Numbered from the stretch's first letter, positions 13,698 to 61,893 are shown. The stretch: DNA of 64,000 bases from Botryllus schlosseri (GCA_051294905.1 CM119372.1:14820001-14884000), one strand, 5' to 3'. Notes: generated by a model from the letters alone, not told the origin. Translations and numbers: made by a program.

Positions 13698-14745
13698 ATG
13701 AATCTAGTAACAATTTCAACCGTCGTAGCCGTAGCGATAACCTGTCTCAGTGGCGACGTCGTCACAGCACAAGACTCGGTTTCCGATTACGGTCAAATTG
13801 AGATTGCACCCTATAAGACTGTCGAACGTTTCAATGAGGTAAGCTACATTTGGCGTTCTCCAGTCAGTGAGATGACGTGCTTACAACGCTGTCTTATTGT
13901 AGGACACCCCACGTTACGCTTACGAAGAGAGGATATACCCAGCTGCATGGTGGGTTGCGACAAAATCTAATAATGGCTTCAACCAACTTTTTTCCTACAT
14001 CAGCGGCATGAACGCGAATGGTAAAATCATATCTATCATTACTAACCAACAACGCTCAAGCGATATTTCTTTCTCTGTATAGGAACTAAAATTGCTATGA
14101 CGGCCCCTGTTTTGAACACGATTTCCCAGACTGAAAGCGGGTACTCTTCTGAAATGGCCTTCTATATTCCGAAGAAACATCAGGAAAACCCTCCTGAGCC
14201 AACAGGAGACGGTGTTACATTGAAAAAACTCTCACCCATGACTGTCTACGTGAGGTAAGTTGCTTTCCTGGTATATGTTCTACTCTACCTGACAGTCTGG
14301 ATGCCAATATAGCGATATATAAACTGAAACGTTAAACGAGATTAGATGATAATGACCAACTGCTCAGTGCTCACACTTGTCCGGCACCATTGAATTAACA
14401 TGTACTGACTACTGAGGTTCCAGTTAAATAATTTCCCAGGAGACGATGCATACATCAATTAATTCTAATGATAGTTCGATCTTTCATGTGGTTAAATGTG
14501 AGATATAAAAGTCGTTGTATTTTATTTGGGTCCTATCATAATTCCGTTTATTACACCGTTACAGAACGTACGGAGGCTGGTCGAACATCAAGGCAATTCA
14601 ATTTGAACTAAAAAGACTTGTCACATCCTTGAACAGAGATGAAAAGAAATTCCTTAAAGATGACGTGTATACAGCGGGCTACGATAGTCCTATGCGTTTC
14701 TTCAACAGAAGAAACGAAATATGGCTTCTCAAAGATCCTCAATGA
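13698..14745 (+). CDS. HEBP2: SOUL/HEBP-family heme-binding protein, paralog A, 203 aa, predicted signal peptide
   Basis: Exons 13698-13838, 13903-14020, 14083-14254, 14565-14745. All introns GT-AG; 612 nt open frame. SOUL motifs YEERIYP, GFNQLFSYISG-N, KIAMTAPV, MAFYIP, NPPEPT, VYVRTYGGW, AGYDSPMRFFNRRNEIW. Hydrophobic N-terminus MNLVTISTVVAVAITCLSGDVVTA. AATAAA at 14781. Symbol is family-level only. Confidence 0.93.
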
Positions 14746-20425: not shown

Positions 20426-20610
20426 GCCTAATACAATACTCTATTCAAAATCGAACCACTCAGCTCAGGTACTCGGTTTAGCCCCTGGAGGCCCACTCTC
20501 AAGTCATAACTGTAAGTGGAGGGGTATAGAGCAAAAGACTCTATTCACACATGTTTTGATAATAGAAACGATTGTTGATATACGCTGTTCTTTCGAATTC
20601 TCTACTAGTT

Positions 20611-20654
20611 GCTGACGATTACCCCTGACGAGTGTCAGCCGAAAATATTCGGGT
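20611..20654 (+). ncRNA. Minimal type I hammerhead ribozyme (Penelope pLTR)
   Basis: ACCC-CTGACGA-G-TGTCAGC-C-GAAA-ATAT-TC-GGGT: stem I ACCC/GGGT, conserved core, 1-bp stem II, palindromic AATATT stem III, UUC cleavage triplet. Confidence 0.8.
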
Positions 20655-20751
20655 TCATTTTAATATGAATATACTATTCAATTGTATATTGAAGTTCTGT
20701 ACCTCAAAGAAGCTGTTCAGATAATAGAATAGTATATTCATATTGAAATGA

Positions 20752-20795
20752 ACCCGAATATTTTCGACTGACACTCGTCAGGGGTAATCGTCAGC
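20752..20795 (-). ncRNA. Minimal type I hammerhead ribozyme (Penelope pLTR, sense to the ORF)
   Basis: Minus strand reads GCTGACGATT-ACCC-CTGACGA-G-TGTCAGT-C-GAAA-ATAT-TC-GGGT. Confidence 0.8.
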
Positions 20796-21433
20796 AACTA
20801 GTATAGAGAATTGGAAAGAATTTGCAGTTAAAACAATCGTATCACAAAATATGACGTCACCAGCATGGAATGAAATCTCAAAGAAGAGAGATTTCAATGT
20901 ACTCTTTTAAGATGATACACCAACTCCTTCTGTAGACCGAGCTTGGTCTGATGTATTTTGATAAAGGTCGACTGCAAGGCACACAGATGAAAGTGTGAGC
21001 GACCCCTTCCGATGACGCGAAATCTGTCGTATCGATAATTATTTTCACAAGCGGGATTATCCAACAGATGTTTACGAATGGGAGATTTATGTCCTTTGAT
21101 CGCTCAGCATCAAGCTTGAGCTGATGAGCCAGGGGCGAGCTTTTCACCGAGCGTGATGCACGTGTTCTGATAAATCTAGGGACATGCTGGCTTATACGTT
21201 CCTGCAAACGCTTCAACGTTGTTCCAACGTAGCCACAATCACAGTGGCACTTATATTCGTACACTACATTACTTTGTTGAACTGCAGGAAGCACGTCTTT
21301 ACGTGTTGAAGTGAGCAGTTGCGTTGCCGTCAAAATCACATTAGTTTTCACTGTGTCATTCCATGCTGTGACGTCATATTTTGTGATACGATTGTTGATA
21401 TGCAATGTTATTTCCAATTCGCTACTAGTTACT

Positions 21434-21466
21434 ACCCTGACGAGTGTCAGCCGAAAAAATTCGGGT
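21434..21466 (+). ncRNA. Degenerate hammerhead ribozyme copy
   Basis: ACC-CTGACGA-G-TGTCAGC-C-GAAA-AAAT-TC-GGGT. Palindrome broken and upstream GCTGACG lost. Confidence 0.6.
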
Positions 21467-22794
21467 TCATTTCAATATTAATATGCTGCTCAATTGTATA
21501 TTCAAGTTCTGTACCTCCAAGAAGCTATTTTGACAATACGTCATACGACTTTACCATACTGGAACAGTCCCATAAACATTCAGGGGTGGGCAGACCCATT
21601 CCGTGTTCGAGGCGCATATTGCGAAACATAATGTTGCTACACAGCAAACCATCAAAAATACGGATTTAATCACTCGTAATGAATCACAGAATTTCACATT
21701 CCTTGTCGACACTACTGACTGAGAACACTGCAGCTAAACGCTCCAGAACGTATTGACCTGGTAGTATACGTCTCACGCACTTGAAAATACAATGTCCAAA
21801 ACAATAGTTTTAAAGGGGCACCAAGCTCTAAATATGATGTGGTCTCAAATTAAAGATGAAATTGGGAAAAACTGTTTGGCTGCAGCCATTTCCTACAGAA
21901 AGCCGCCGTCATGGAACTGCAGCTAAAAGTTAATTCAAGCTATCCGCATTTCACGCCAGCTGCATAAGCAAAATTTTCAATCCATGGCTGGAAAAATTGG
22001 AAACACCTGAAAGGTTCAGGTTCATGTAAACGCGAACCTTTTTGAAAGGTTCTGTGTAGGGATGGTGTGAACGTGAGTTTCACGTTCGCGTTCTGTGTGT
22101 GAACCTCAGAAATTTAGAGGTTCACGTTCACAAACGAACCTTAGTAGGTTCTGCACTGTGAACCTTTTTCATATATTACAATTTTCACTTCATTATAATG
22201 GCTTTGGTTGAAATTTATTGCGTTTTATCTTCGGGCCACTTTATGCATAGCGCTGGCAGCATAAAAAAGCAACATTAAACGAGCATGCACCCTTCTTGAC
22301 AATCTCAAAAATTTTACTTGCTTTGTTACAAAAGTTTGCTTGAAACATCAAGCTTTTCGTTTGTGAATATTTAATGACTCTCTGCTGTAAGCTTGACCCC
22401 AATCACACAACATCAAGAGCGAAATACACTACATGTAGTCAGCGAATGATGTTTATTGCTTATTCAACCAATCAATGAAATTGATATCGTTGTCTGATGT
22501 AAGAAATCTAGCAGGCGTACGGGTCAATCTTGGATTACCAGAGAACCCGGCCCTTGGAGAACCCGGCCCTACCAACTCGGCCCTCGGAGAACCCGGCCCT
22601 TGGAGAACCCGGCTCTCGACGAACTCGGCCCTCGGGAAATTTTGTATATCAAGCACGTGTGGTCTACTTGTTGTGGTATTCACGGTGTTTTTCGACTACT
22701 CTGGACCTCGGTGAATGCGGCCCTCGAACAATTTTGAATTAAAAATGCATTAAATGTGTACCCGGCCCTCGGGAAATTTTGTATTCACCGGCAA

Positions 22795-26052: not shown

Positions 26053-29000
26053 CTATTCAGCCAAAATCCAAACTTCGTTTCTGCGCCCCCAAAGGCGATA
26101 AGGGCTTTCGTATGCAGCAATGTAGAATTGGCCCTTTCTATAAGGCATCCCGTCTTTTTGGAGTAATCCTTCTAGCTTTTCCAGTTCATTCTTCTCTTTC
26201 CGTTCATTCGTCCAACCACTATAGGCACTGTAGAAAACAGCAGCAACCGTCGAGTCCTTATGATTTGATATGGAAATCGTAATGTTTTACGCATATTTTA
26301 CTAACGGAAAAAATTCCAAATCTTCGGTCTGTTAAGAGGAATTGCCTGGTATACCTACTGCTTGCCTAAAGGCAAAGTTCGAACTGCGTTTACCCAAAAA
26401 TAACCATTTAAGCAAACATCAAACATCAATAAATTACGATAATATTGGAATCTATATGCAGGTTGGAGATTATCGTCCCCTTACGAGCTAATAATAATAA
26501 TAACCTGGTGATGACCAGACATATAAGGCACCGTGGATCGAATGTCTCTCGAGTACGAGGGGGTATAGTTCGCTACTTGCAACGAAAATACGAGGAAAGC
26601 TAATAGTTGTGGTGTAAAAATTAGCAGTGAAGATCACAAATCCCGAGTTTATACCCTCAATAGCTTCCTACAACGATCTATTCTCTGGTAATGTTCACAA
26701 ATGATCAGTTTATGTCATATAGTCCTATATGTCATATTGCATTACCAATTACGGCTACAATTAATTGGATATGTTGTAATCGTCCTAACCGATTATAATA
26801 ATCAGAATGCACGAATATCCCCGAGGATGCATTTAAAACAAATGATGGTTTAAATAACTTTGTTTAAAACACGTTTAAAACTGTGTTTTAAACAAATTGT
26901 TTTCTTTTAAGGTGCATAATTATGCCATAAGTGTGCAAATACTTTTAAAAAATCACATTTTCTTTGAGCCTACGGCCGATTACCACCCGATATAGCCGAC
27001 CTATACGATACGGGATGGTTGGAACCTCGAAATAGTCAGTTCTATAGCTATAGTACGTATATATAGATCGGTACGGAAGGTATGTTCTGATGATGGTGAC
27101 CGCCGAGCGTAAAAATGCTGCATGACGATGTAGTCCTGGTTAAAGATGGAGCTATATTTACCCTATATTTTCAATTGTCAATGTCAATCCGCTATGACGT
27201 CACAAATAAATACCCTAATTATCCCATGTCTGAATCGTACCGTGAATAATTTTTCCACTTACAAATTATTAAAAAAAAATTGCATCATATGGTAACCATG
27301 AACTAGTTCCATAGAGTTAGATGTCTTGTTCTCAAGGCCATATAGTTTAACAAACCTAGTGTACGTACATGTACTGTATATATCATTGTAGTATACGCGT
27401 TTACAATGTACATACGGTGATTGAATCAAGAACTTCGCATAACCTGGCGTTTACAATGTACATTGTACATACAGTGATGGAATCAAGAACTTCGGATAAC
27501 CTGGCATAGATGCGCATTCCTGGTGTCGTCGATAGATATACATCTGAGTTGGTTGGCCGAGGAGGTTTATCGTGAAATTGTTTCGGCGTGTAGAACGACA
27601 TTTCATGTTTATTGTCGCGACTTGTCGGTTTATCCTCCACACCGTCGTATGACATCAATACAGGTACTGTCATACTGATATTTGCATCTAAACAGAAATG
27701 GTTATGGGCTTCTGGTATTCTGAAATTAACTGGTATCGTTTTATAGTAACATATTTATGTCCATGTTGCTAGTAATCGAAGAGTCCGATCAGTGTGTGGC
27801 GCCGACTTTTACTTTTGCATGGGGTGGCGGCAGGCGCGTAGCCAGGGGTGTCGGAACCCCCTCCTTTTGAAACGCAAAACCCCGTCCTTTTGAAATGACC
27901 ATTCTGACGCTAATATTCAGTTGCAATTCAACAAGTCGTATTATCAGTGTTACGCGGGACCGCGTCCAATTAGCGAGACTCGTCTGTGCACGCATATCGC
28001 ATCGCAACACGATCGCAACACGTAACGCGACACGATCTCCCGCTGATATGGTTGCGAAATTTGGTCATTCATTGCCGCGTGCTCGGCATTCGTCGCTGGA
28101 CTGAGCAGTAACACGGCGCGACAATTCTGGTCTGGAACACGAAAGACAGACAAGAAATATGATTGGCGCGGCCAATCAGTAATTATCCCTTACCGCCAAC
28201 ACAATGGGTTTTTACTTAGTATTGAGTAGCTCGCATCACGACAGTTGGTTGCTGATTAAAACATCGATTTTGACTGCATTGCTGCATTTCCCGATTTACG
28301 TGCGCAAAGCATAATTGGATTAATATTATATTATGGCCACTGGAATAAATTCCAACTAGCAGGCACACACAACAAAACACTGTTCAACTTTGCGCTCCGA
28401 GAATATTTATCACAAAAATGGTTCACAAAATATTTTAAACGCGGCTTGCGCCCCTCATCGATGCAAATCATGCACTTTAATTTGTAGAAGGTGAACGTGT
28501 ATTTGGTCGTCAAATCGCGATAGGAAATGGTGTTTCTCAGAACGCGCGATGAAATCTACGTTTCTAACGATGAGGTCGAATTTGTACATCTAATAAGGAT
28601 CGTTAGTTTGCTGAAATCAGCATCAGTACGCCATGCGAAATACATAGTAGTGAATAATTTTATCGGACTGTACAATCGGCCGGCAAGGTTGCGCTGATAA
28701 CGAAATTGCAGACATGCCGCAAACCTGCAATAATTACAATTACAGGGTGCGCCCGTCATACCCAAATACCCCGATTCGGCAATGGCAACAAGCACAATTT
28801 GTTCAGACGCGGGCATAAGTTTTAATCAAAAAGATACATAAATACAAACAATATAACACTCAGAGATTGTTACTGTTTGGCGAAAGTGTTTCTGCGGACG
28901 GTAGCAGTATAGAAATTAAACTATAGTAGCAGGCCTGCCTGCGGATGCGCTAAATCAAACCAACAACGATAGTGCACATGAGATATCGATGGCCCATTTC

Positions 29001-32000
29001 GCATACAAATGATTCTCGCTAATTTGCAGTACGCAGCATCGGTAATACGAATGAGTAAATTGGCATTTCAAAAGGATGGGATTTCTAGTTATAAATGAGA
29101 AACTCCCTGGCTACGCACCTGAGGTTTTAATGCCGACAACGCGCTGGGTAATATCAGACCGGGTTCTTCGGTCTATATACGTAGGCTCCGATCAGCAATA
29201 AAATGGTGCGCTTTTAATTAACCACGTGTTATTGCAGTAAGAGCAATATGGGTGCATGCCGCGACCTTATCAATAGAAATACATATCCCAAGAGTTTGAA
29301 ACTCGATCCGCGATATGGTTGCGCTCGATAGAGTACGTCCAGCAATGAAGTTTATTGGAACATATATGGTTCCCGTTCAAACTAATCGAATAAATGCAGA
29401 ATTTGTACCACCGAGAATCTCGTGCTGCAATAATATTTGACAACGTAACTCTACGCCAGGGGTGGGCAAACTTTTGAGCTCGCGGGCCGCATTCAACATC
29501 TGAATCCATTCGCGGGCCGCACTATATAAAATTGGGATTATAAACCAAAACGCAATATTGCTGGTATTTGATTATATAGTGAGGACATGGAGATAACATA
29601 TATGCTTATTTAAAACAAACTAAACATTGCTATAATGATATCGTTCACGCGCCAGAAGCAATGGCGAGATTTAATAGGCTGGTCGCCCTCAATAACCAAT
29701 TTGTCAAAACTATAGAGATATAAAGTCGGTTGTCCCGATTCTTAGAACAGGATTGAAATTTAAATCTGTGAGCAGTGATCTGCTCATAGATTTACCAATT
29801 CCACTTTTGGTTCAGTGCCAGGACACACAATGCTGACAGCATCATAACCATGTTAGCTTCAAACGCGCTTCTACTATATGTGTAGATAAAATATAAAAAC
29901 CCTAATTCTACGCATACAGAGAACGAATCTATTTAAGACACGCGCAAACCGTTTTTATAAGCACATCACTGAAATAATTGAAACTGGAGTGGCCAATCTG
30001 AAATCGCACTCGTGATCCCAATTACGTCTATCTCGTTTGGGATTTCTGTGATGTTTGGCAGTTGAAACCTTTCAAACTGCGTGGGACTTGACATCGGGCT
30101 GTCGCACCAGACATTAAACAGGAACAATAATATAGGAAGTATTTACCTTAGATAAGTGGTTCTCGAACTTTTTAAGACATGCCCCCAACCCCTTATGATG
30201 GTGAAAGATTTCGCGCCCCCTTATCGTCATATCACAAAACGCAACCAGGATGCTATAGCAAACCTAACGGATAGTTTGGTGGCATGGGAGGTTACGACTA
30301 TTGATGAGAGATTTTTAAATATGAAATTCATACTAAAGACAGAGCAATAATTATGAATTGGAAGTAAATCGCGCGTAGCGCGAAAAAAATTTTCAGTTGA
30401 GCTCAGCTTCGCGATCCCCTTCAGATGCTTTCACGACCCCAAGGGGCACGCGTCCCCCAGGTTGAGAACCATTGCCTTGGAATTATCATGGTGAAATATA
30501 GTCAAATCATCTCTGCATTAATTCGATTTTTAGTACGCATTTTCTCAATATTTTTAATAAGTTACTTTAGACTCTCACGGGCCGCAAAAAACGGTGTTGC
30601 GGGCCGTAGTTTGCCCACCCCTGCTCTACGCTCTGTACTGCACAATACGTAGTATTAATAACAAATCAAACACTGACAAGTGACACCGAGAGAATACGAG
30701 TGTACAAAACAGACAAGGATTAGTAGCCTACAGATGATAGCAAACGAGAAAGCGCGCATCTCATCAGTGATTCATCAACTTGCGGACAGCAAAATGGGGT
30801 TCCAAGTCTGACATTGCGATAATTGTTTGCTCATTATAACGACGTTTGAGCTGCATTGTTACATTTTCAGATAAAATTTGGCAAAGCCTTGTTAGGGTAA
30901 TGAATATGCTCACTTTGCGCAGGAATGACTTTGAATTCGCAGGCATGCACAAACGCACTGTCCTATTTCGCGCTCCAAGCCCCCAATTAAAGAGACTATC
31001 ACGGAACTACCTCAAGAATTATTTTTTAAACGAATATGGTCGCAAGTACAATTTAACTAGGGGGAGGAGAACGTGAATTGTCGAGAGAGAAGATGGTGTT
31101 TCTCAGCGCCAACGTGTCGAAATCGACGTCATAAACGAGGTTGCTTCGATTGTCTGATTACTAATCACGGGTTACAATTTATTGGGTCGGTTTAATTAAG
31201 CACTAGTTCGTGTCGCCGACGAAGCTGCATATTCAATTAAGCGCGCGCGTATCGGTTAATGGTAAATAGTTGACATTTACGCGTATTATCAAATTAATCG
31301 CTCACAAAATGTTTTGTAAATTCGCAAGGTCAACCAAAAATCTGATTAGCCTGACCGCGTACCTCAACCAGACTTGGACAACTAGATAATTCTAGTTATC
31401 TAATTTCACTAAATAAGAGCAAAATGCCAGTAATCTAATTCTAATCTAATTCATGAAATATTTCTGTGCTCCAATTCTAATTCTAATCTAGTTTGTTAAA
31501 TATGTTTCTAAACTTTAATTTTAATTCTAATCTAATTTATTGCTTTCCGGAAAATGCCTCTTTGTCCGCGACATTTTGCAACGATTTAACAATAATATCC
31601 CTCTCGGGCAGGGAAATCCAGTGCCAAGCCCCCGTCGCATTACTTACGCCCTATATTCATATTAGTTATTGTGACGCATAATACACAGACTAGCACTAGC
31701 TTGTAGTCTGCGAACAACCTTCTAGTTTCGATCACAAACAGAACAGCAGCAACGAAAAATAGATAGTTAACATGAGGGCTTTGGAGCCGGAGCGAGGAGC
31801 CGGAGCCCTGCAGCCGCGCGTTTTCACCAGGGCTGGAGTCGGAGCTCTACATAAAATTCAACCGGAGCCGGAGCTGGAGCCAGTTATTGAGGAGTAGCTC
31901 CGGCTCCGACGTATTTCATAAGATGCTATCACATATGCAACAACCATATCTGCTGATTTCACATAATTCTTCAGCAGGCCTTCGCGAAATTAAAAACTTT

Positions 32001-35000
32001 TGCCTCTTTGGCGCTACCTTTTCTGACTAACCGATTTAACAGCAGATAAATCATATGTTCAATGTTCAATTTTCATACATGAGCGCCGAACCTCGGTAAG
32101 CTAGATATGCCTGTGAAGTAAGGATTTTCGACCGTAAATAGCCTAGCCCCTCTAAGGGATGGCAGAAAAGTAGCCCAAAACGCCATTACACTCAGCAAAC
32201 ATTTGTCGCGGTGCAAGCTACACAATGCGATGTCAGAACCTATGGTGTTTTATGTTGGAGACAAATTACTGCTTTGATACGCGATTTCCAATTTGTAATA
32301 ATCTGTTTCGTGCATTCATTCTTGATGTTTGCGGGATACTCCGGTATCCACGAATTATCGCGCACTGGGACTTGTAAATGTGCTTAGTTTAATTCGTTAC
32401 GGGCACGTCGCAATGTACACGGCACAGTGTTTAATTCGACTATTCGAATCGTTTCATCGGAAAAATAATATATTCCGATAAACTTGATAGACACCGGATG
32501 GAATGGTAACGAGTGCACCAATATCTAACTTCCAACCATTGGCTATTTGGTACAAATCGGATTTCTGTTAACCAGGTCGTAATATCCGCCCATATTGTTC
32601 TTACTGCAGCATACAGTTGAATAATAATCGTAAATTTAAAGATTGAATTCAGCTGTATGGCTTAATGTTAACGATTACAGTGTCAGTGTTAAAACGCCAC
32701 ATCAGAATTTTAATACTGTACACAGCAATGGCATGGAGTAGACAGCGTTCTAGTGCAACTACTTGGACAACTAGATAATTCTAGTTGTCTAATTTCACTA
32801 AATTAGAGCGAAATGCCAGTAATCTAATTTTAATCTAATTTGTGAAATGTTTCCATGCTCTAATTCTAATTCTAATCTAATTTGTGAAATGTTTCCATGC
32901 TCTAATTCTAATTCTAATCTAATTTGTGACATGTGTCTATGCTCTAATGTTAGTTTTAATCTAGTTTATCTATTGCTTTCCTGAAAATGCCTCGTCGTCC
33001 GAGGCATTTTGCAGCGAGTTAACAAAACTGTCCCTCTCGCGCAGGGAAATCTAGTGCCAAGCCGCCATCGCCATACTTACACCGTGCACTCGTGCAGTCA
33101 TAGTAGTTATTATTACGTCATACAGACAAAATAGTTCTTACATTTCGAATTTGATTCACCCTATCACTGACGTTTCGCTACTGATGAGAGTCAGTCGAAA
33201 AGCTTTTAGCGAATAAATTAACAATATGAAGTTATTGTTTCGCGTTATTCTGAAGTTCTGTACCACAAATCACTTGTTCAAATAGTAGTTATTGTAACAA
33301 ATAATATTAACCTGCTAGCCTGTAGTCTGCGAATGACATTTTAGTCTTTGAAACTTTACATTAGTACAACGACGGGCTGACTAACATGATGGGTGATGCT
33401 CATGATTACCACAAAAGAAGTAATTTTTTATTAAAGTAGTACAAATACAACGAGAAATATCATGGTCATAAACGTCATTTTATTTTGAACTATGAGCTGC
33501 GCACGATACCCGACAACGCTTTCCAACGACTACTGAAACGATATCGGTGCTAGCCAGTCAAGTTACTAGCTGAAAGACCATCTCATCCTGAAGATTGATC
33601 TTGTGGGGACGTCGTATGCCATTTTCTTAGCGTCTCTGTCTCAGCAGAGTCTGGGCCATTGCACGTCAAGGCAATATGCTTATAGATATCAGCAGTCTCT
33701 CCATCGATGGAATGCTGTTGCCATCGCCGAAGCCGTTTCAGCTAGTGTGGAATAAAGTTGTTGGGCACAGGTGAATAGTTTATTTTGAAACAACAACAAT
33801 AATTTGAAACTGAAATAAATTTTAATACTTCAAAATGCTTTATTTATCGTATTTCCAAAATCTCAAATCAGATCGCCGGCAGCGATTGCGGTGACCCCTG
33901 GTATAGTAAAAATCGAGCCAAGCTTGGTGTACAGACGTTAACCATTGTCGTGGTTTTGATATGAACTGATTTCTGCTGTATCCATTTCACATTCACAATT
34001 TCATTCAATTTCCAAGTTTTTACGAATTCAGTAATTCTAATTCTAATCTAATTTGGTAAAAACGGTGTAGCTCTAATTCTAATTCTAATTCTAATCTAAT
34101 TTTAAAAAGCTGTGTAGCTCAAATTCTAATTCTAATCTAGTTTGGAAAAACTTGTGTAGCTCTAATTCTAATTCTAATTTAATTTGTAAAAGTTGTGTAG
34201 GTCTAATTCTAATTCTAATCTTATTCGGATAAGTTGAAAATTTTCTAGTTGTCCAAGTCTGAATGATGTCATCGACAATTGACAAGTATTGATTATGACG
34301 TCACAAGCCGGCACGGCGGCACCTATGTCTTCGTTGCTGCATCCTATGTTACTGACGGCTGGCAGACTCTAGATTACTATAGATAACTAACATACGGCTA
34401 GATTAGTAATATTTATAGACCAGGGGTGGTTAACCTTTTCGGCCACATGCAATTAACGAACGAGTGCGCGGTCCATTAGCCGCGCCAAGCGCGTAAAATT
34501 TTCCAAGTTTATAAATGAACTAGGTCAATAATATCAATAAATTGCGGGTCAACTGTATACCGCCCGATGGGCTCAGTTTGCAAGGACAGGACTATTCAGA
34601 ATCTGGACATTTCGATATCGAAGGTTTCCGCTAATATGTGTCAAGCATTTTTAGCCTACATTTCATCGTCGACGATCTTTCTGCAAGCGCAAACGCGACT
34701 TTCACTCGTAATTGCGAATATAGTTAGACTCAATCGGGTAAATTGGGCGTTTTCTTCAGTTTCAGGAGAGGGTAGGCTACCAAGCAAGAAATCGTGTGAC
34801 AATTAAACACGCAAAGCGTGCGGAAAAATTTTACTACTATTTCAGTTCATTGAAATGTACGACGATTTACTCAAAATGTGACTGGACCCTGGATCTGTCA
34901 ATGCGTCGGAACCAGAGGTGGTCAAAGTAGACAAGAAAGCTACTCAAGTAGAGCTAGAAGTAGCGACGAAAAAATCTACTCCAGTAGGAGTAGAAGTACT

Positions 35001-37581
35001 TCTTTCATATGCAACGTAAAAATATTTGAAGCAGAAGTAGAATTGACTGACTGACTTTAAATCTACTCAAGTAAGTAAGTAGTCAGTTGTTAAAACGACC
35101 ATAATTCGTTCGCATGGCCTGTCAAGAGCTGCAAATTGAGCTATGCGAAAGGTGCCGAGCTTGATTCATATTGATGCATACCAGGAGGTATCGAATTTTC
35201 GACAGGATAAGCATTCGTTCGCATCATGGGATAGTATTGATATGGAAATGCGATACTAATCCTATGTTTACTCGATCGTTTTAGAAAATGTCATGGTGTG
35301 GCGCCCTCCTTCATAATATAATGCCCGTAGTTTAGTCGAAGAGTAATACGGAGAAGTTGTATTGGATACGATGTAAACATTTTGTGTGATTGGTAAATTT
35401 TAATAAAAAATACGATGGATCGTAAAAATTCCATGTGTAGCTTTATTACCGGAAATTAAAGGCATTACTACACTCGCTTTTATATTTCAACATGTATGTT
35501 CTGCAGACAAAAGAACTGAAACTAATTAAAAATAGAGAAATACAAATGCCACTTCTAAAGAGCGAAAATCTATTCCATGTCTTTTGTCTATGAAGGTGGT
35601 TTACTAATACAGTTTTAACGTTAAAAAAGGAGATTAGTAGGACACGTCATGGGCCGCTAGATTACGATATGATAGGTAATTGGTAGATTGCGAAACGGCA
35701 GTTTCAAACGTTATGGTGGGCCATATTTACTGTGATGAAATATTTGATATGGGCGACAATGAGGTGTGAGCGGAACCACGCAATACGGTACCTGAATTAT
35801 ATTCACTGATACTTTCGTGAAAACATATTTGTCACTCCATAACTACTGGGCTTTTCTTGAATTTTGTGAATATTAAATGTTGGTACTACGTGAAAACAGC
35901 TCCGAAATTTCTCGGGCTATATTTCTTATTGGGGGGGATTATACTACTATACTACTATTGCGACGAGTAATAGCTATGTTGGCATAGTAGCTAGTAGTGT
36001 GCGAACAACATTCTAGTTTCGATCACAAGTGGAAGTGGAAAAGGAAGTGGAAAAATATTTCGAAGCAGAGAGTGAGAGCATGGACTGTGAATCTGTGATG
36101 TATTGGGTTACTGGAAAAGACAAACTCGTTTTCCTCGTCTCAAGGCTGCTGCTCGAGAACTCGTAGACATGACCGGAACATCAGCTCCACCGGAAAGAGT
36201 TTTCAGCCATACGGGAGAACTCTATAATGCAGGGGTCGCCAACTCAAAACGAATTTCGGGTCACTTTTAAAATTTCGTAGAGGCCGCGGGCGCAAGAATG
36301 CAATATCGAGACAAAATATGCCACACAGTTGGGCAACGACGTTTTTAAAACTTTACGTTAGTACAACGCCATGCTCACTAATATAGGCGGTGGTCATGGT
36401 TACCACAAAAGAAGTAATATTTTATTAAGTAGTAAAAATACAACGAGAAATATCATGATCATAAACGTCATTATATTTAGAACTATGAGCTGCGCTCGAT
36501 ACCTGACCAATGACCAGTGACCACGCTTTCAAATCAATTTCAGCATTTCAAATGCTTTACTTCGCGTTCTTCGAAAATCACAAATCAGATCACCGGTGCA
36601 TGTGGCCCGCGTGTTGGTGACCTCTGGTATAGTGCAAAACGAGCCAAGCTTGGTGTAAAGATGTCATCCATTATCATGCTTATGGGAATGCATTGTGATT
36701 AGATATGAACTGAACTTAATTTGGCTGTAAATATATATTTCTCATTTAAAATTTCATTCAATTTCAAAGTTTCTGCGAATTCAGTAATTTTAATTCTAAT
36801 CTAATTTGGAAAAAATGTGTAGCTCTAATTCTAATTCTAATCTAATTTGGAACAAACTGCGCAGGTCTAATTCTAATTCTGAATCTAATTTGGAAAAATT
36901 CTGTGGCTCTAATTCTAATCCTAATCTAATTTTGAAAAATTGTGTAGCTCTAATTCTAATTCTAATCAAATTTGGAAAAGCTGAAAATTTTCTAGTTGTC
37001 CAATTCTGATCTCAACTCTCAATCGTCGAATTCCGGGGTAATCGCGCAAAACGTAATCACAGTGATCAGTGATCTGACCAATCACCAATAGATCTCAATG
37101 AAATGGGTATATTCAATATTCATGCCCAGCTGTAAGAAGATGATATGCTAGAGAGATCATTGCTCGCAAACGCACACATTAGTCCAGTAATGTACCAGAT
37201 AGGCGGGATTTCGGACAAAATATTTCAAATGCCAACTTACTTTGCTCGTTATACCCAGTGATATAATTGTAAAGCCTTCGAAACGGGCTCTCCGCGGTTC
37301 TCTTGGTGGGATCTATCGTGGTGGTAGACCATTGCAGAGACGAGTATGCACGTTTCTCATAACCCTCTTTCTGGAAATTTAATAGCATTCGATTACTGCA
37401 GACGATATTATTTCTGTTTAACGCTAAATGCCATGCTAAATTATAACTAGTAACTACCCTGCTGCAGTAAGTTTACATATCTAACCGAGGGATTTCTAGA
37501 AATCCCTGATCTAACCTTAAGCTCCACAACGTAAGGGGCCATTTCATATCCTCTGTGCTGATCACACACTTTATCGCCCAT
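26053..37581 (-). CDS. HEBP2: SOUL/HEBP-family heme-binding protein, paralog B, 185 aa, no signal peptide
   Basis: Exons 37581-37516, 37370-37241, 27687-27501, 26227-26053 (66/130/187/175 nt, identical sizes to paralog C), GT-AG introns. Motifs GYEKRAY, PFRRLYNYITGYN, ISMTVPV, MSFYTP, YSGW, AAYESPYRLWGRRNEVW. An in-frame upstream ATG exists at 37650, but paralog C supports 37581. Confidence 0.9.
29457..30623. mobile_element. hAT Buster/Charlie-like MITE (family H) with a nested MITE near 30153-30475
   Basis: TIR CAGGGGTGGGCAAAC; TSD CTCTACGC (nnnTAnnn). Related sequence at about 8660-9027 and 55316-57078. Confidence 0.85.
33112..33281 (+). mobile_element. 170-bp solo Penelope-type pLTR / hammerhead-bearing retroposon
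   Basis: 12-bp TSD ATAGTAGTTATT (33100-33111, 33282-33293); absent from the sister L copy at about 31665. Shares the 3' motif GAAGTTCTGTACC with the pLTRs at 20.6 kb. Confidence 0.8.
33166..33213 (+). ncRNA. Minimal type I hammerhead ribozyme
   Basis: TTCGCTA-CTGATGA-G-AGTCAGT-C-GAAA-AGCT-TT-TAGCGAA: 7-bp perfect stem I, canonical core, palindromic AAGCTT stem III. Confidence 0.82.
36040..36665 (+). pseudogene. hAT transposase C-terminal dimerization-domain remnant split by a MITE (36230-36626)
   Basis: EVEKYF..VMYW../ TRFPRLKAAARELVDMTGTSAPPERVFSHTGELY, then after the MITE YSAKRAKLGVK. SAxxERVFS is the hATC motif. Confidence 0.75.
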
Positions 37582-37709: not shown

Positions 37710-39142
37710 CGATAAAGCTAGTGTGGCAGGCCTTTGATCGCCTATCGAATGAATCAGCTGTTTGTAGTATTCCTCGGTCCAATGACTGCAAACAAATCGT
37801 GTTGGCCGATTGAACTCCAGTTCTGTCGTTGGATATATAGCGTTGTATTTTGCCAAGCCCATTCACAGGCTATACCGCTATACATGATATGCAACCTGCA
37901 ACCTATAACCTGTAACCTGCCCTCGTGTAGATTCGGCGACATGGTTCCTTAATCTCTTTGGGGTGGACCGGCCTGCCTTAATATGTCCGAAAAATCTTAT
38001 CCACTACTAGCACGGTGAAATGAGCAGCGAACACGGTTTCGGACAAGCCTATCATTAGGCGGATTTAGATCACCGAATTTTGCGGAGCGAGATAGCGTAA
38101 TGTGGCACTTCGAATATGGGTTGAATCTTTACCCGGCCTGTAGGAATGAAGTATAACAGTAGGAATGAGTGATAAGGAGTTGGATACTATTTAGCCATGA
38201 TTCAAAATGATGCAGGATTTATATTTCAGACTCAATTCTGGAACTGAATTTGCATTTCAAAATATTATACCCAAAGCTCATGTTTCTATCTGTATTAATA
38301 TATAAATGATAAATACGCATACAACCAAGCTTTGATTGCAGTGTCGTAACAGTATTCCGTCATGTTACTAATGCTACAATTTCAGGAAACAAGGTTTGAA
38401 CGATACTTGTACAATGCCCAATGGGGCGAGCTCGAAGGGGTCCCAAAATATTTCGTGAATTAACATAAATCATAGAGTATTTTTTTGAAAATTTATGCTG
38501 GGCGCGATTTAATGTTGTGAAATCTCTTCATTATTGGGTATTATACCCTTCCCCCAACAAAAAATACGCATGATTTATAGAAGTGGGTGCTTCGGCGTCG
38601 GCCATTACCACGCAACGACGCACCAAGACGTATCTACTTCGAGATATAGGCCTATGCAACATATATATAGATATAGTTTTTTAATTGTCCATAGGCGACT
38701 AAATGGTTGGCGCCGAATGCTCCTGTTTTGGCGATCTGAGCCCCACAAGACGACTGCCATCCCGCAGGGAACATTATTTGCCAGTAAAGAAATACCAATC
38801 TGAAATCGTGTTTGTCTTTTAGTTTAGTATGTTTGAGCGATTTCAATATCTTTTGACATAGCAGATAGGGGGTCACGAAATAACATCATGTATCGGAGTC
38901 ATTATCCCACGAGTCCGTCCGAAGATGTTTAATTATTACACCTTTTCCAACACACCTCACTGAGCTCTACCGGTAAATCTGATTACGTGAGCAGAGAGAG
39001 GATAAAAATTGATAGCAATATACATGCTATGTGGAGGGGCCTGACGAAGTGCTGTTGCGGTCCTGGGTACGGCAGTTATCGCTCTCGTCAGTTTTATATA
39101 TACCGAGAGCCAAATTACAAGGATCGAAATCGGCCCTCACAC

Positions 39143-42100
39143 CATAGTATGCTATATGGTGTCGACACAAGCAAATCTCGCGGCTCAGTGAAATTGATTC
39201 ACGTCACAATTTCCATTTGGCTACAGGCAATTTGACGGTCATTTTTGACCGGCTTGCCGAGCATTAAATTTGGTGAAACGGATATCAATCGAAAGCTGAC
39301 TCTGCACTGATTACGAAAATATAAATTTTATTCCGCTCGCGGCCCTGGAACTCCCACAATCAGCCTCGAATTTTTCATTGTTATGGAGATTGGCATTGGG
39401 ACGTAACCATGCTGTCTAGGGAAACGAGAGAGTAGCTCAAGAGCAAAAGAGCGGCTGCGCAGCGAGAGTGGGTAACTCAGCTGGTGTCGCTCAACGATAC
39501 CGCTGTACTGCTTCTAACGCAAAAGGTCTCTGGCACTCGGAGAAATCCGAATGGTGATTGAATAATGATAAACCAAATTCCAACGTGAACGTCACTGTTC
39601 GGTTAAAACTCCTATATTCCTGACAAGTGCTATTTAGGCCTAGGCTTGGTAATAGAGCATTCCAGTGAAAAACAAAGGTAAGGATTTGGTGGTAACATTT
39701 TGGAATATTTTGACTGGTCCGGCCCGCAAGCGGGCCAAGCCAATCGATATCATAATAATCTGGCATATCCAATGTAGACTACTTAGACGTAGCCTAAATA
39801 TCTCCGTAAGTTGAAGGATAATGCGCGAAAATTGGTAGGGCCCTAATAAATTCTGTGGACCCAGTTCTACCCTTACAAGTCGAGGAAAGGCTGGTAATGT
39901 GTGCTCGCTTTTAGCGAAGCGCATAGAAAAAGCAGTGGCGGCTCGTCCTATAGGGCAACTGGGGCATTGCCCCACCTAAAATTCTGTTCAATAACAGTTC
40001 TTTACCATTTAGAGACGCACAGCAATCTATATATACCGAAATCACAGCGAAAATCGTATTCTTCTTGTCCTTTCGCTTGTAAATGCTCATATATAGCGAA
40101 GTCTCTGCGAAAATCGAATTCTCTTCCGTGTTTTCGCTTTGCGAATGCCTGGCCGGGGCATGCCCCGGTAGCGCTCATAACAAGCTTTCACTGTCTATTC
40201 TCTCAAAGCCGCGCACAATAAAGAAACAGTGATTTACTCTCTCCTATTCATAAAATTACCGAGCAACCGGGGCAACATAGCCTAGTCGCCCTCAAGGTGT
40301 GATGTAACAATCGTATCTATATCTGAACTCGGTTACCGTCATATGCGTTTAGTCGACCTTTGCTGGTATAGGTCGATTTTGATGGTGTTTCACACCATGA
40401 TAATTCTTGAAACTTGGTATGTCATGTCGTGATAGTGGTATTTAACACTGTCCCAAGTTACAGGGTTTCTACTTAAAGTTTAGGGTAGTAATTCCGTTTC
40501 CGAAGTTGAGTGTGTGCTGACCGTCATGTATCGCAAACAGATTTTACTCAAAAGCCGGTATTGGTATCCATTGATTTTGACGATGTTCCATACCGAGATC
40601 GGTCATGACATTTGGTACGGTAAGTCTTAATGTTAGTATCGAACGCTGTACCAAGTTTCAAGTTTGTCACTGTACTGTGTTTGTGGTAATTTCGTTTCCT
40701 AAGTCGAGTGAGAGCTGACTCGTCATTTATCGCAAACATATTTTACGTAAAGCCGGTATTGGTCTCCATTGATTTTAACGATGCTCCTTACCTAGATCCG
40801 TCATGAGCTTTTGCATGGTATGTCTTGATTTTAGTATCGAACGCTGTACCTAGTCTCAAGGTTGGCACTCAATGATTAGGGCAGCAATTTCGTTATCAAG
40901 GTCGAGTATGGTAGAGATGTGCGCTGATCTGACACTTAGCCCACCTAACGCATTGCGGATTTCACGCAAAAGCCGGTGTATCTGTGTTAACGCTAACTGT
41001 GTTCCATACTGAGATAGGTGATGAGATGATGATATCATGAAACAGTTTACTAACATCCTCGGTTTGCATTCAAATATTTACTTTTATTTTATATTCTCCA
41101 ATGTCAATTTCACCGTGAAATTGTGGCCTTCAGGCCATTTGCTTACAATTACAACCCCTGTCAAGCGCGATAGCTGTTTCGTTTTCGATGGCGGCTAAGA
41201 GCTGATCGCTTGATCAGCCTATTCCTCAGTAAATTTTACGCAAAATTCGGTGTTGGTCTGTTCGTATTAATTTTGACAGTGTACCATACCGAAAACGGTC
41301 ATGAGGCTATTTCTCGATGATTTCATGTAACAGTGTACCAAGTTTTCGGCTTTCATCCACGTATTTATTCGGTAATATATTTTCCCAAGGCGATTTTGCA
41401 GCAGACATATAGACACTATAGACCGTAAGCCGTATGTGTCGTGTGACAGTCTCCAGCCTCAAGGCCAAAATCTCCTATGCTGTACCGGGACCGAATTTCC
41501 GAGGCCGCTATCCGTAGTTCTTCAGAATTATGTTTTGGATTCAATATGACATGTCCAATCTATGAGATAACAATTGCGTATGTGTCCGAACTCGTTGACC
41601 TTTCCAGTTAGGCTTACGCAATCTCTCGAGTTATAGTCATTTCCATTGCTGCAGATAATTAGTCAGGTATAGTGCGAACATGAACCGTGTCGAATCTTTG
41701 TTCCGTACGCCGTTTACGCAGTTACCACACTTCAAGTCACAGCTCACCGGCAGACCTCTCGCGGCACATACGTTAAAGTCACTGTTGTCGGGAAGTTCGT
41801 GTTACCGTAGTCCGTACCACCAAGTTACTTGTTTACGTTGGAAAACGCCATTGTGACGTCATCTTGATGAAAAGTCGCTTGCAGCCCTTGCCCCACCACC
41901 CGATATTGTCACGAGCCGCCACTGAGAAAAAGTATCAACAGCGCAGCGTTTCTCTGCGACGCGATTACACTAAGCACATTGCCATTGCCTCGACGTCAGC
42001 TGATCTCACTCTCGCCGCGCAGTCGCATTCTTGCTCTTGAGCTACTCTCTCATTTCGGCAGTCAGGATTGTTGCGTCACACTGCCAATCTCCTCAACAAT

Positions 42101-42856: not shown

Positions 42857-45392
42857 CTAATCTGCCAGAATCCAAACTTCATTTCGACGGCCCCATAGCC
42901 GAAACGGACTGTCGTATCCCGCGATGTAAAATTTTCCTTTTTGATAAGGCATACCGTCCTTCTGAAGTGAACTTTCCAATTTCTGCAACTCTTGCTTTTC
43001 TTTTTGTTCGTTAGTCCAGCCGCTATAAGTGCTGGAATATCAATCGAGCCACAGTTACGCGGGGACTAGACAGAATCTGAAAACAGTGAAACGCATAAGA
43101 ACTGCAAAAATACTTGTGAGCGATAAAGAACAAAACTCGATGCCAGATATGGAAACATACGGATTCGAGAACAAACTGGTCTTATCATGAATATGGTTGC
43201 CAACATTTGAGAATGCGACACAATGAAAACTAGCCTTAACCCACCGCCAAATTTACCGTTATCCTACCCCTAACCTAATCAGATATCTGGCCCTGTCTCT
43301 CAACATAAACCTGCATGGCCAGCCTTTTTCGGCCAACGGGTCACATCAGATTTACGAGCCATTGCGCGGGCGACTTGATTGTTGCTGACCTTTTTTAGTC
43401 GTTCGAGGAGGGATCCGGACTATGTAACGGGGAATAGAAGACTTATCTTAGTACGCATCAAACTCGATAACAATTATGCCATAAAAACTCCTAGCCGCGC
43501 GAAGCACAAAAAGATTTCAAAGTTAATTAATGAATTCGCTCAATAATATTGTTACTTTAATATATTGCGGATCGCCTCTGTAAACCGCTCAGCTCATTTG
43601 ACAAGGACAGGATTATTCAGCGTTTGGACATATCAATATCGAAGATTTCGGTGAACATGTGTCGATCATTTTGTGCAAAGTTTTCATCGCCGACGACCTT
43701 TCTGCGAGTGCAGACGCGAAGTCGCTTGTTGTACGTCACGTTCTGTCATAATTTTGAATATAGTTAGAACCATTTCTGTAAATTGGGCGTAATTTTAATT
43801 GGGCGTAATTTTTTCAGGATGGGGCACCAATACTGAAAGCAAGAAATCGAGTGACAATAAATCGCGCGAAGCGCTAAGAAAAATTTCAAATCTACTAAAT
43901 CTGCCACGAAATATTCCGCTTTATGGTCACATGCCAAGATCTACGAAAATGTGGTAGTCCCCTGGCTACGCCAATGAGTCGGAACTGATATTTTAGTCAT
44001 CAATCTCCCACATATCGCGGTCAGGCTAATCAACTTTTTGGTTGGCCTCGCAATTGAAAGTTCATAATAAATTACCTGGGTAATTTATTTTTTTATAATA
44101 TAACTAATTTCGAAAATTATCTCGCGGGCCACGCCGGTTTTGGCAAATATGAGTGTTGTTCTGAATGCTGATAGGTTTTCCGTTGAAACTCGAATAGAAG
44201 GTGTCGGACTCTTCAAAAAGACGGCATAAATAGACAAAATTGGTTGACACGGCGGATTGGGACGTTCTTAAGAACCCGACAAATCATCACCATCATCATC
44301 ATTAACGCCCTATGGGTCGGGGAGAACATGGGATATTTACAGTAGCCGGAAAACAAAGTACCACAAGTTCAGTTCGATCAAAAAATACTCGACTGAGCGC
44401 GGGATTGGAACGTTTTGCTGCGCCAACCAACCTGACGTAGACGCTCATTCCTGGAGTCGTGGATAGATAGACGTCCGCGTTGGTCGGCTGGGGAGCCTTG
44501 TCGTGAAAATCTTTCGGCGTGTAAAACGACATTTGGTATTTGTTGTCGCGGCTTGTCGGTTTATCCTCGGATCCATCGTACGACATTAGTACTGGTACTG
44601 TCATGCTAATCTTCGCGTCTGACGTAACAAATACGGCATTCATCAAGGTTAGTATGATTGTTGATCGGTTCATATGATAACTGAATGCCGAAAACGATCT
44701 GAGACCTGCTTCGGACTTCGAAATTGTTAAGGGTCATATTATTGTTGCGGCTCGGTTAAAAGTGTATCACGAATTTATAATGACAACAAAATTATCACGG
44801 CCGACGAACTAGGATGTTACACAGCGTTGGTCGGTGAAGGGACATATTTTTATCATCCCGAAGTATAGAGGCAAATTCAATTTTACTAGAAGTAGGCAAA
44901 CCGTGGCCAGCAAGATACTTATATCCGGGTCGAAAGTTGTATTGGCCCTGCGATTCACGTAAAAGGTATAAAGCTAACAACATACAATATATACATTATA
45001 CAATAAAGAAATTCTAATTAATTCAATAAATCATTAGGAACCATCGTTCACCAACGATTCGAGCTCATCCAGTTCAACCAGACTCATAATTTCACACTCG
45101 AGTCAGTTTATAAATATTTGCACGTAGCTTACTTTGTTCGTTGGATCCAGTTATGTAATTGAATAGCTTTCGGAATGGACCACCCAAGCTTTTCTTGCCT
45201 GGCTCCGCTGTGGTGGAGGACCATTGCAATGACGCGTACTCACGCTTCTCATAACCGTCTTTCTGCAACACCAACATCAGTAACGAGCGGCTAGCCACGC
45301 TAAACCCATCCCTTGCATATACTAACCTTCTCCATCACAGAATACGGGGCCATTTCATACCCACGATGCCGATTGAGGACGATATCCGCCAT
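42857..45392 (-). CDS. HEBP2: SOUL/HEBP-family heme-binding protein, paralog C, 185 aa, no signal peptide
   Basis: Exons 45392-45327, 45262-45133, 44618-44432, 43031-42857; GT-AG introns; 558 nt open frame. Motifs GYEKREY, PFRKLFNYITGSN, KISMTVPV, MSFYTP, TYSGW, AGYDSPFRLWGRRNEVW. Confidence 0.93.
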
Positions 45393-60388: not shown

Positions 60389-61291
60389 CACGAACTGGAG
60401 CTTTGTCTTATTTGATTAAATCGGTACTTTACCATATGACTGCCAGCAGAAAATGCATCGAAAGACCATTGGGATACTTATCATTAGTGCTTTGCTATTT
60501 TTGATTATTTGATTTGTGTATTGTCGTTAGCTGTCCACTGATTTGCATTCACTTGGTGTTAGTAAATTGCAATGACAAATTTCCTACTCTTTCGTATCTC
60601 AACTACCACATACGATGACGATCGCCCCATATATTAGAGGCAATCGAAAGGACCTTTGAGTAAAATATATCGGGCAACAGTGACATGCGGCGATCTCCGT
60701 GGTTGGTGGCGGCACTGACCCCGTCAGAGTCAAATTTACAAATATATAAACCCAAAATGGTAGCTGATTCAAGTTGACCACTTTTTTCGCCCCGGTTCCG
60801 CTCATACCAGTCCTCAAGTTTACCGGACCACGACCCGACATATCGATCTCGCCTTCCGTCACATTCTAACTCCTTTTGTCGCTTGACCATCTGCATTATT
60901 TCATTTACTCTTCATTCAATGTGCATACCTCCTCTTTACATCGCCTAGTTCCGGGTGGGTGTCTGATTTCAAAAACTGCTCCAAGTCGTTTCGACATCTT
61001 CCTATCTTTTCATTGTATCGCCATCTTGTGGTGTTTTGAAATGATGAAAATTCCTAATAAACTGAACTGAACAAGCTTCACTTATCTGTTATTGCAATAC
61101 CGCTCGCAATAAAGAAACGTATGATTCACTTTCTTTATTCATCGTAGGCTACTCGACGAAGTTATGCAACTTCCTAATTGCCGTGATCTATGAGATAACA
61201 GTGACGTATGTGTTGTATGAGTTTAATTTTGGTGCTGGACTTATAATAGTGTTTTGCACCAGATCTATGATAACATTGATAAGAGTATCAT

Positions 61292-61893
61292 CATAGTGTC
61301 CTATATGGTGTCGACACAGGCAAATCTCACGCCTCAGTGAAATTGTATCACGTCACAATTTCCATTTGGCTACAGGCAATTTGACGGTCATTTTTGACCG
61401 GCTTGACGAGCATTAAATTTGGTAAAACATGTATCAATCGAAAGCTGACTCTGCACTGATTACGAAAATATAAATTATATTCCGCTCGTGGCCCTGGAAC
61501 TCCCACAATCAGCCTCGAATTTTTCATTGTTATGGAGATCGGCATGGGGACGCAACAATGCTATCTGGCGAAACGAGAGAGTAGCTCAAGAGAAAAAGAG
61601 CCAGACAGCATTGTTCAGCATTGTTGCGTCCCAATGCTAATCTCCATAACAATGAAAAATTTGAGGCTGATTGTTGGAGTTCCAGGGCCACGAGCGGAAT
61701 AAAATTTATATTTTCGTAATCAGTGCAGAGTCAGCTTTCGATTGATACCCATTTTACCAAATTTAATGCTCGGCAAGCCGGTCAAAAATGACCGTCAAAT
61801 TGCCTGTAGCCAAATGGAAATTGTGACGTGGTACAATTTCACTGAGGCGTGAGATTTGCTTGTGTCGACAACGACACCATATAGGACACTATG
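61292..61893. mobile_element. Short P/Galileo-like foldback (near-complete 600-bp palindrome), same family as 39143-42322
   Basis: CATAGTGTCCTATATGGTGTCG.. arms of about 270 bp; 7-bp TSD GTATCAT. Confidence 0.85.

Follow-up and report, generated by a model that had tools for sequence, protein, structure and literature searches.

The window analyzed here, the whole 64,000-nt stretch of Botryllus schlosseri DNA (GCA_051294905.1 CM119372.1:14820001-14884000), carries four clustered SOUL (PF04832) genes whose orientation alternates, at 14082-14727 (+), 26065-37373 (-), 42869-45268 (-), and 57830-58009 (+). Minus-strand SOUL exons were located at 37233-37373, 27500-27685, and 26065-26277, and a splice junction joining 27687 to 37241, with CT..AC ends, is supported by four reads with four starts in RNA run X23. 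The intron removed in this way contains a 170-bp insert flanked on both sides by the 12-nt sequence ATAGTAGTTATT (Table 1). An earlier note, made from the sequence alone, had proposed that a hammerhead ribozyme within this insert is antisense to the SOUL pre-mRNA. Because there are minus-strand exons on both sides and reads that splice across, the antisense placement within the intron is secure. This copy is probably inert. The insert and its flanking duplications were also verified at the coordinates first given. The insertion lies in another repeat with empty paralogous copies, which establishes the 12-bp target-site duplication as genuine: at 5 of the 11 empty sites examined (L349, L350, L351, L356, and L357), the overlap between the left and right flanks is precisely 12 nt and surrounds one copy of the duplicated 12-nt sequence, and the remaining 6 align less cleanly. 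The last 6 nt of the left duplication (33106-33111) match the inserted element upstream of its truncation point as well, and so do the first 3 nt of the right duplication match the element. The surrounding repeat is abundant (~32760-34260 and 36700-37000) and is bounded by 42-bp TCTAAT-rich minisatellite arrays; the part flanking the insert on the left has 767 candidate matches in the genome. MITE-like long inverted repeats, with arms of 111-255 nt that are up to 95% complementary, are found at 39140-39470, 59448-59714, and 61289-61870.

Table 1. Positions of the insert, its host intron, and the hammerhead components and copies in the window
Feature	Position	Strand	Evidence
Target-site duplication (12 bp), left copy	33100..33111	+	Empty paralogous sites
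5'-truncated 3' end (pseudo-LTR part) of Penelope/Poseidon-type element, family A, ACTGAC/GTCAGT subfamily	33112..33281	+	
Target-site duplication, right copy	33282..33293	+	Empty paralogous sites
GT-AG intron (9,553 nt) of minus-strand SOUL gene, with the insert inside in antisense	27688..37240	-	Exons and spliced reads
Pseudoknot helix, 5' strand (ACTGAC)	33166..33171	+	
Stem I, 5' strand (TTCGCTA)	33174..33180	+	
Hammerhead core C3-A9 (CUGAUGA; DNA CTGATGA)	33181..33187	+	
One-pair stem II, G10.1-C11.1 (33188/33196), with 7-nt loop	33188..33196	+	
Pseudoknot helix, 3' strand (GTCAGT), in loop II	33190..33195	+	
GAA core strand, palindromic stem III AAGCTT (33200-33205), and H17 = U (33206)	33197..33206	+	
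Stem I, 3' strand (TAGCGAA)	33207..33213	+	
Start codon and first ~19 codons of the 850-aa ORF, part of the terminal repeat	33226..33284	+	
Family-B homologous pseudoknot hammerhead, GCTGAC/GTCAGC	20611..20654	+	
Family-B inverted copy, G-U at first pseudoknot pair	20752..20795	-	
Family-B decayed copy, upstream pseudoknot strand lost	21411..21483	+	

The insert derives from a 2,778-bp autonomous Penelope-like element, of whose terminal repeat it is a copy truncated at the 5' end. A genome search returned 1,486 candidates, and the 40 that were scored are 98-100% identical, several of them spaced 2,778 bp apart. The tandem 2,778-bp units are up to 100% identical, and each carries an ORF of 850 amino acids that starts 19 nt past the predicted hammerhead cut. 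When aligned with the full-length units in locus L032, the insert is collinear and 97.8% identical, with its last 56 bases corresponding to the first residues of the ORF. The predicted protein has 612 homologues and contains an RVT_1 match (E 7e-10), followed at its C terminus by a GIY-YIG-type segment with CxC and two His residues that was read from an alignment; the Pfam GIY-YIG model does not match the 850-aa protein, and among 120 homologues listed it is recorded for 2. A single ORF encoding a reverse transcriptase (RT) and then a C-terminal GIY-YIG domain with two Cys and two His is typical of Penelope/Poseidon elements, as are tandem units acting as pseudo-LTRs, inverted 5'-truncated partners, and an optional 30-40-bp tail, all of which occur here. 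By the clade criteria of Craig 2021, the ORF has neither the CX2-5CxxC linker of Neptune and Nematis nor the N-terminal endonuclease of Naiad, and it reads DKG instead of the DKT of Hydra. The element is therefore assigned, from its domain architecture, to the Penelope/Poseidon type. The family containing the insert (family A) appears young since intact ORF starts at least 98% identical were found in 36 of the 150 matches scored. The earlier note took the hammerhead of the insert for a second family, distinct from the copies near 20.6 kb. The sequences do differ, but they are not independent: family B is a sister family with the same motif before the same ORF start and an ORF 59.7% identical to that of family A, and separate inventions are ruled out. 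Across families that keep the core, ORF identity is 56-70%.

The hammerhead in the insert is type I, with the CUGANGA/GAAA/UH core and stems I-III, and rechecking placed the core and stems I and III where they had been reported. The predicted cut falls between 33206 and 33207. A scan of both strands of the 64 kb for the core plus stems found exactly three motifs, and a model built from the alignment described below added a decayed fourth copy (21411-21483). The same model gave a weak match at 60604-60678 (17.5 bits, E 0.03), perhaps what is left of an old copy. The family-B copies at 20590-20810 form a tail-to-tail inverted pair with one long and one short 3' end, an arrangement described for Penelope insertions. 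Genome-wide, a pattern of the core plus a one-pair stem II has 9,056 matches (some counted repeatedly) versus 29 in a reversed control, so the motif does not arise by chance; the U3-A8 form of the pattern has 1,409 matches versus 48 in the control.

The segment just 5' of stem I was reported to be complementary to loop II, and ACTGAC/GTCAGT in the insert, GCTGAC/GTCAGC (20611/20634) in family B, and the version with a G-U pair in the minus-strand copy are indeed all complementary. The evolution of this pairing was followed in the region before the start codon, using ~60 loci of related elements and 123 metagenome stretches. The resulting alignment has 12 rows, one per lineage and selected by us: A1 (the insert), A2, and B-J from this genome and K from metagenome contigs, with decayed and rearranged copies left out; A1 is closely related to A2, and D to J, and the tree positions of A1 and J were set by DNA likeness. 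The upstream 6-mer and loop II are paired in 71 of 72 cells. Five of the six pairs change on both sides (pair 1, A-U, G-C, U-A, and C-G; pair 2, C-G and G-C; pair 3, U-A and C-G; pair 4, G-C, A-U, and G-U; pair 5, A-U, C-G, and G-C), and pair 6 is fixed. This register is the best among 2,016 possible 6-bp helices; none of 500 shuffles reached its pairing score, and only 18-36% of cells were paired in slid-partner controls. Shuffles ignore kinship, and a tree-aware null was therefore added, in which the parsimony substitutions of each column were placed on random branches of the ORF tree under two branch-length schemes. With neither scheme did any of the 40,000 replicates attain 71 paired cells. 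Double changes on the same branch numbered 6-8 versus 1.0-1.4 expected, with 8 and 0 of 40,000 replicates reaching 6. Covariation in these rows extends to stem I and to the core 3-8 pair. The covariation that the earlier note had called for is thus significant under a parsimony-based, tree-aware null, and the pairing between loop II and the upstream strand is under selection. A helix of 6-7 bp had been proposed, and the six pairs stand; the seventh, a G opposite the first loop base, was dropped because it forms G-U in only 4 of the 12 rows. The suggestion that the pseudoknot compensates for the nearly missing stem II holds in that the pairing is selected where stem II is a single pair, and a gain in cleavage rate would be expected from other hammerheads.

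Family A itself contains a swap at pair 4. At least 323 copies were found with a pattern that left pair 4 free, and the first 100 listed comprise 60 A-U, 39 G-C, 1 G-U, and 0 A-C; the swap is counted as one event because the copies form two clonal lineages. In the metagenome family K (L178-L300), the search pattern placed no constraint on three upstream bases, and these are complementary in 109 of the 113 matches, all of them copies of one family. This family has U-A at pair 1, U17, and a mixture of C3 and U3 with G8, and its start codon lies within the 3' strand of stem I, 3 nt past the cut. Family K was the only motif family found in the metagenome pattern scan, and it has no exact pattern match in this genome. 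A search of prokaryote genomes yielded one stray distant element (L345, 37% identity) with an ordinary 4-bp stem II and, from this one case, the brace seems limited to a clade. L345 is a 1.4-kb contig in a cyanobacterial MAG, with a Penelope-like 3' end and an ordinary minimal hammerhead, and is probably misbinned animal DNA. No relative was found in viral contigs, where three chance pattern matches had no stems.

Other parts of the motif vary among the rows. The C3-G8 core pair covaries to U3-A8 in 4 of 12 rows, and family G (L137, L138, L139, L155, and L156), with intact ORFs, has the core variant U3-C4-G5...A8. Family I (L099 and L135) has A17 and C4, the latter unusual for hammerheads. Stem III is a perfect palindrome in 8 of 12 rows, and the representative of family H has a point change. 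The remaining families E, F, and G (L112-L120 and L137-L139) have near-palindromes of 7-8 nt with a central mismatch, and these same families carry the GTGCC/GGCAC brace. Seven of 12 rows have an AATAAA that overlaps the 3' strand of stem I or comes after it; in the insert (33212-33217), it overlaps the 3' end of that strand. Lying just 3' of the cut, it could be the poly(A) signal of the element. U at position 17 gives a slower cleavage triplet. It is the family A state (314 copies with U versus 7 with another base), which rules out a mutation private to the insert. U17 is also excluded as a novelty, being common in Cervera 2014 Fig. S3 (PMC4209133).

With a probability of about 0.8, we read the locus as an aborted Penelope/Poseidon copy bearing a type I hammerhead that keeps a 6-bp loop II pairing, the pairing likely serving as a tertiary brace for stems I and II, and predicted cleavage requiring a second copy or an element protein to close stem III. 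Since related elements kept the brace through matched mutations, it likely aids folding for the predicted self-cleavage. By analogy with the braces of Perreault 2011 (PMC3088659), the pseudoknot helix would stack on the one-pair stem II and hold stem I parallel to it; closure of the tiny palindromic stem III by a second copy or an element protein would then permit cleavage. Cleavage in dimers is the published model for palindromic stem III (Cervera 2014, PMC4209133; review PMC6765202). For two A1 copies, the predicted cofold is 6.5 kcal/mol lower in energy than two monomers; it has stem I swapped between the copies and the palindromes paired, and loop II is still paired with the core. In A1, B, and C, single-strand folding with a program that cannot fold pseudoknots favors an inactive hairpin in which loop II pairs with the core. 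A helix IV is not conserved: a Y-G pair flanks the pseudoknot strand in 11 of 12 rows, and past it 8-9 of 12 rows are unpaired at each position. The lack of this supporting helix counts against the reading, as do the inactive fold, the core variants of several families, and the slower U17 triplet of family A.

RNA reads were examined in four runs (3-6% of each), and no pile of starts or ends was seen at the cut site, through which depth continues. Across the full unit, the terminal repeat is covered and the body of the ORF hardly at all. These four libraries detect cleaved RNA poorly. A search of sequencing runs listed no carrier recorded as RNA. Three of the four runs are single-cell data, in which second mates map mainly to the sense strand of the element. 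Read lengths and a template-switch sequence suggest 3' poly(A)-primed libraries; if they are of this type, uncut lone sense copies are present in polyadenylated RNA and cut molecules would be invisible.

The hairpin seen in single-strand folds raises the possibility that the upstream pairing was selected as a folding switch, with the upstream strand either freeing the core from the inactive hairpin or blocking stem I so that the template stays uncut. Pairing of loop II with N2.1-N7 is possible in 51 of 72 cells, the hairpin with the core is the minimum-energy fold of A1, B, and C, the upstream/loop II helix appears as a simple hairpin in the minimum-energy folds of A1, E, G, and K, and the genomic copies were copied through an uncut site. 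However, the loop II/core pairing shows no covariation (its score, 0.146, was equaled in 492 of 500 shuffles), and families E, F, and G have lost it, which rules out that hairpin as the pairing under selection. Covariation is seen in the same rows for both stem I and the upstream helix, which can coexist only in a pseudoknot, and the partners of the pseudoknot occupy the same positions as in the solved active pseudoknot hammerhead (Zhan 2024, PMC11300833). A switch is thus unlikely. More improbable still, the fold may be kept as a binding or positioning signal for an element protein or for translation, with self-cleavage weak or incidental. This would agree with the absence of cut ends among the RNA reads, the constant location of the motif 3-24 nt before the start codon, and the behavior of the Anolis hammerhead, which cuts only when protein is added and whose mutants still insert, insertion in vitro being unaffected (Frangieh 2024, PMC11167929). 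Against a mere signal, the catalytic core, including a compensated 3-8 pair, is kept across families with ORFs only 56-70% identical, and this conservation points to selection on catalysis.

The earlier note described the insert as a 170-bp retroposon. Its defined length and clean 12-bp duplication would suit a retrozyme or SINE, non-autonomous but with an independent life cycle, as would the fact that most copies of the family are short. But in 31 copies (30 position-ordered loci and the insert), the 5' ends are scattered from about 50 (51) to >1,500 nt upstream of the cut site, and the 5' end of the insert is shared by no other copy among the 30 loci. The insert is also collinear with the autonomous element and is a single copy instead of an array of the short, fixed-length, ORF-less tandem repeats, each with a hammerhead, that define retrozymes (criteria of Cervera 2020 and the Li 2026 preprint). 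Retrozyme identity is ruled out on these grounds, the free-standing retroposon was abandoned, and an independent life cycle is very improbable.

The 3' ends of the same 31 copies fall +38 to +48 past the cut in 10 and +64 to +78 in 12, and 3 continue into the next unit. The remaining 6 were scored 0-30 nt past the cut, where ungapped extension stopped at indels or deletions, and belong to neither class; one locus, L319, has lost the 3' half of the core. The insert belongs to the long "tail" class, ending 78 nt past the cut, and is truncated ~100 nt upstream of it. These two end classes, 30-40 nt apart, correspond to the tail and the two internal RT starts of the Anolis Poseidon element (Frangieh 2024, PMC11167929). 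Because genomic copies extend past the cut site, the 3' hammerhead of the template must have been uncut or re-ligated. For the insert, reverse transcription would have started ~78 nt past the cut on such an RNA and stalled after ~176 nt, and the product may have been joined to the target through the 6-nt microhomology. Within a tandem transcript, cleavage by the ribozyme would fall 19 nt before the start codon and free an RNA of unit length, and the position of the predicted cut, 3-24 nt before the start codon in 12 of 12 rows, fits such a release. The insert itself is an ordinary truncated antisense copy; the finding is the motif class.

A larger scenario, which we regard as tentative and rather doubtful, is that one Penelope clade uses a fast pseudoknot-braced hammerhead gated by dimers, silent in thousands of lone copies and quick in tandem transcripts, whose cut 3-24 nt before the start codon yields uncapped unit-length RNA that is translated cap-independently and/or circularized as a template for identical tandem units. 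Cleavage of viral 5' UTR hammerheads leads to cap-independent translation (2026, PMC13725137); for the element, translation of this kind after the predicted cut is only a lead drawn from that analogy. If true, the ribozyme would be the first from a Penelope element with enough activity to probe the role of these hammerheads in transposition, which is still debated, partly because those tested lack tertiary contacts and cut poorly. That a Watson-Crick brace was kept through at least six matched double changes shows that the folded ribozyme is under selection. The brace lends itself to clean disrupt-and-rescue mutants, and dozens of copies in the family are intact. The clade also brings the pseudoknot hammerhead into animal retrotransposons, in a pared-down form missed by standard descriptors and by Rfam: the genome has ~10,000 pattern matches, and no Rfam family reaches gathering level in the 64-kb window, where none of the copies is called. 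The family A data add the second lineage with its swapped pair 4, the fixed U17, the verified empty site, the splice junction, and the analysis of end classes.

Several known systems share part of this architecture. The top Rfam match of 4,227 for the motif is RF03152 (PK/RAGATH-1 hammerhead; Zhan 2024, PMC11300833, PDB 8YDC), which has the same type I order, the same G10.1-C11.1 stem II, and a loop II held in a 6-bp helix with the strand 5' of stem I. In contrast, RF03152 has a 5-bp helix IV with an A-rich triplex linker and a long stem III hairpin, whereas the motif has neither a helix IV nor the triplex, a linker of 1-4 nt, a 6-nt palindrome for stem III, and an animal retrotransposon as its host. 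It is not an RF03152 member since it scores 19.2 bits (E 0.68) against a gathering threshold of 56.3 and lacks both helix IV and the long stem III. Pseudoknot braces occur in hammerhead types I-III, including a 5-bp pseudoknot in the human type I hammerhead C10orf118, and a ribozyme with a 1-bp stem II, tested with disrupting mutants, was rescued by compensatory mutation (Perreault 2011, PMC3088659). The Watson-Crick brace joining the stem I side to the stem II side is alike in the two cases; in the portions of that text and supplement covered, it is not described for Penelope elements, and a highly repetitive type I set was excluded from the stem-length analysis. The viral 5' UTR hammerheads share a stem II of 0-2 bp and a site just upstream of an ORF but have a long stem III and no recognized loop-loop contact, with a rate of ~0.01 per min for 1 bp (PMC13725137).

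Among the Penelope-like elements, unclassified "core only" motifs have been noted in Naiads, a different clade (Craig 2021). The Anolis carolinensis Poseidon element PAc has the same RT with a C-terminal GIY-YIG domain, tandem units, two 3'-end classes ~30-40 nt apart, and no RNA reads ending at the hammerhead site; its hammerhead differs in having an ordinary stem II and in cutting 26 nt inside the ORF instead of upstream of it (Frangieh 2024, PMC11167929). The Penelope hammerheads of Cervera and de la Pena 2014 (PMC4209133) are likewise type I, located in a pseudo-LTR near the start codon, with a palindromic stem III suited to dimers, the U3-A8 variant, and common U17 (Fig. S3). The motif has the palindromic or absent stem III and the G10.1-C11.1 pair of these minimal ribozymes but not their long stem II or the extra base after A9: in Fig. 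S3, 56 of 56 representatives have a stem II of at least 3 pairs, mostly with the extra base, and the parts of the paper covered describe no tertiary contact, whereas here a covarying pseudoknot accompanies a one-pair stem II with no extra base. Neither a pseudoknot in Penelope hammerheads nor the combination of 1-bp stem II, pseudoknot, and palindromic stem III was found in the literature covered, which excludes Lunse 2017, Weinberg 2015, and part of the Cervera 2014 supplement, sources that may bear on novelty. In the motif, the palindromic, dimer-type stem III of Penelope hammerheads occurs together with a 1-bp stem II and a 6-bp pseudoknot, features known from bacterial and phage hammerheads (Perreault 2011; Zhan 2024).
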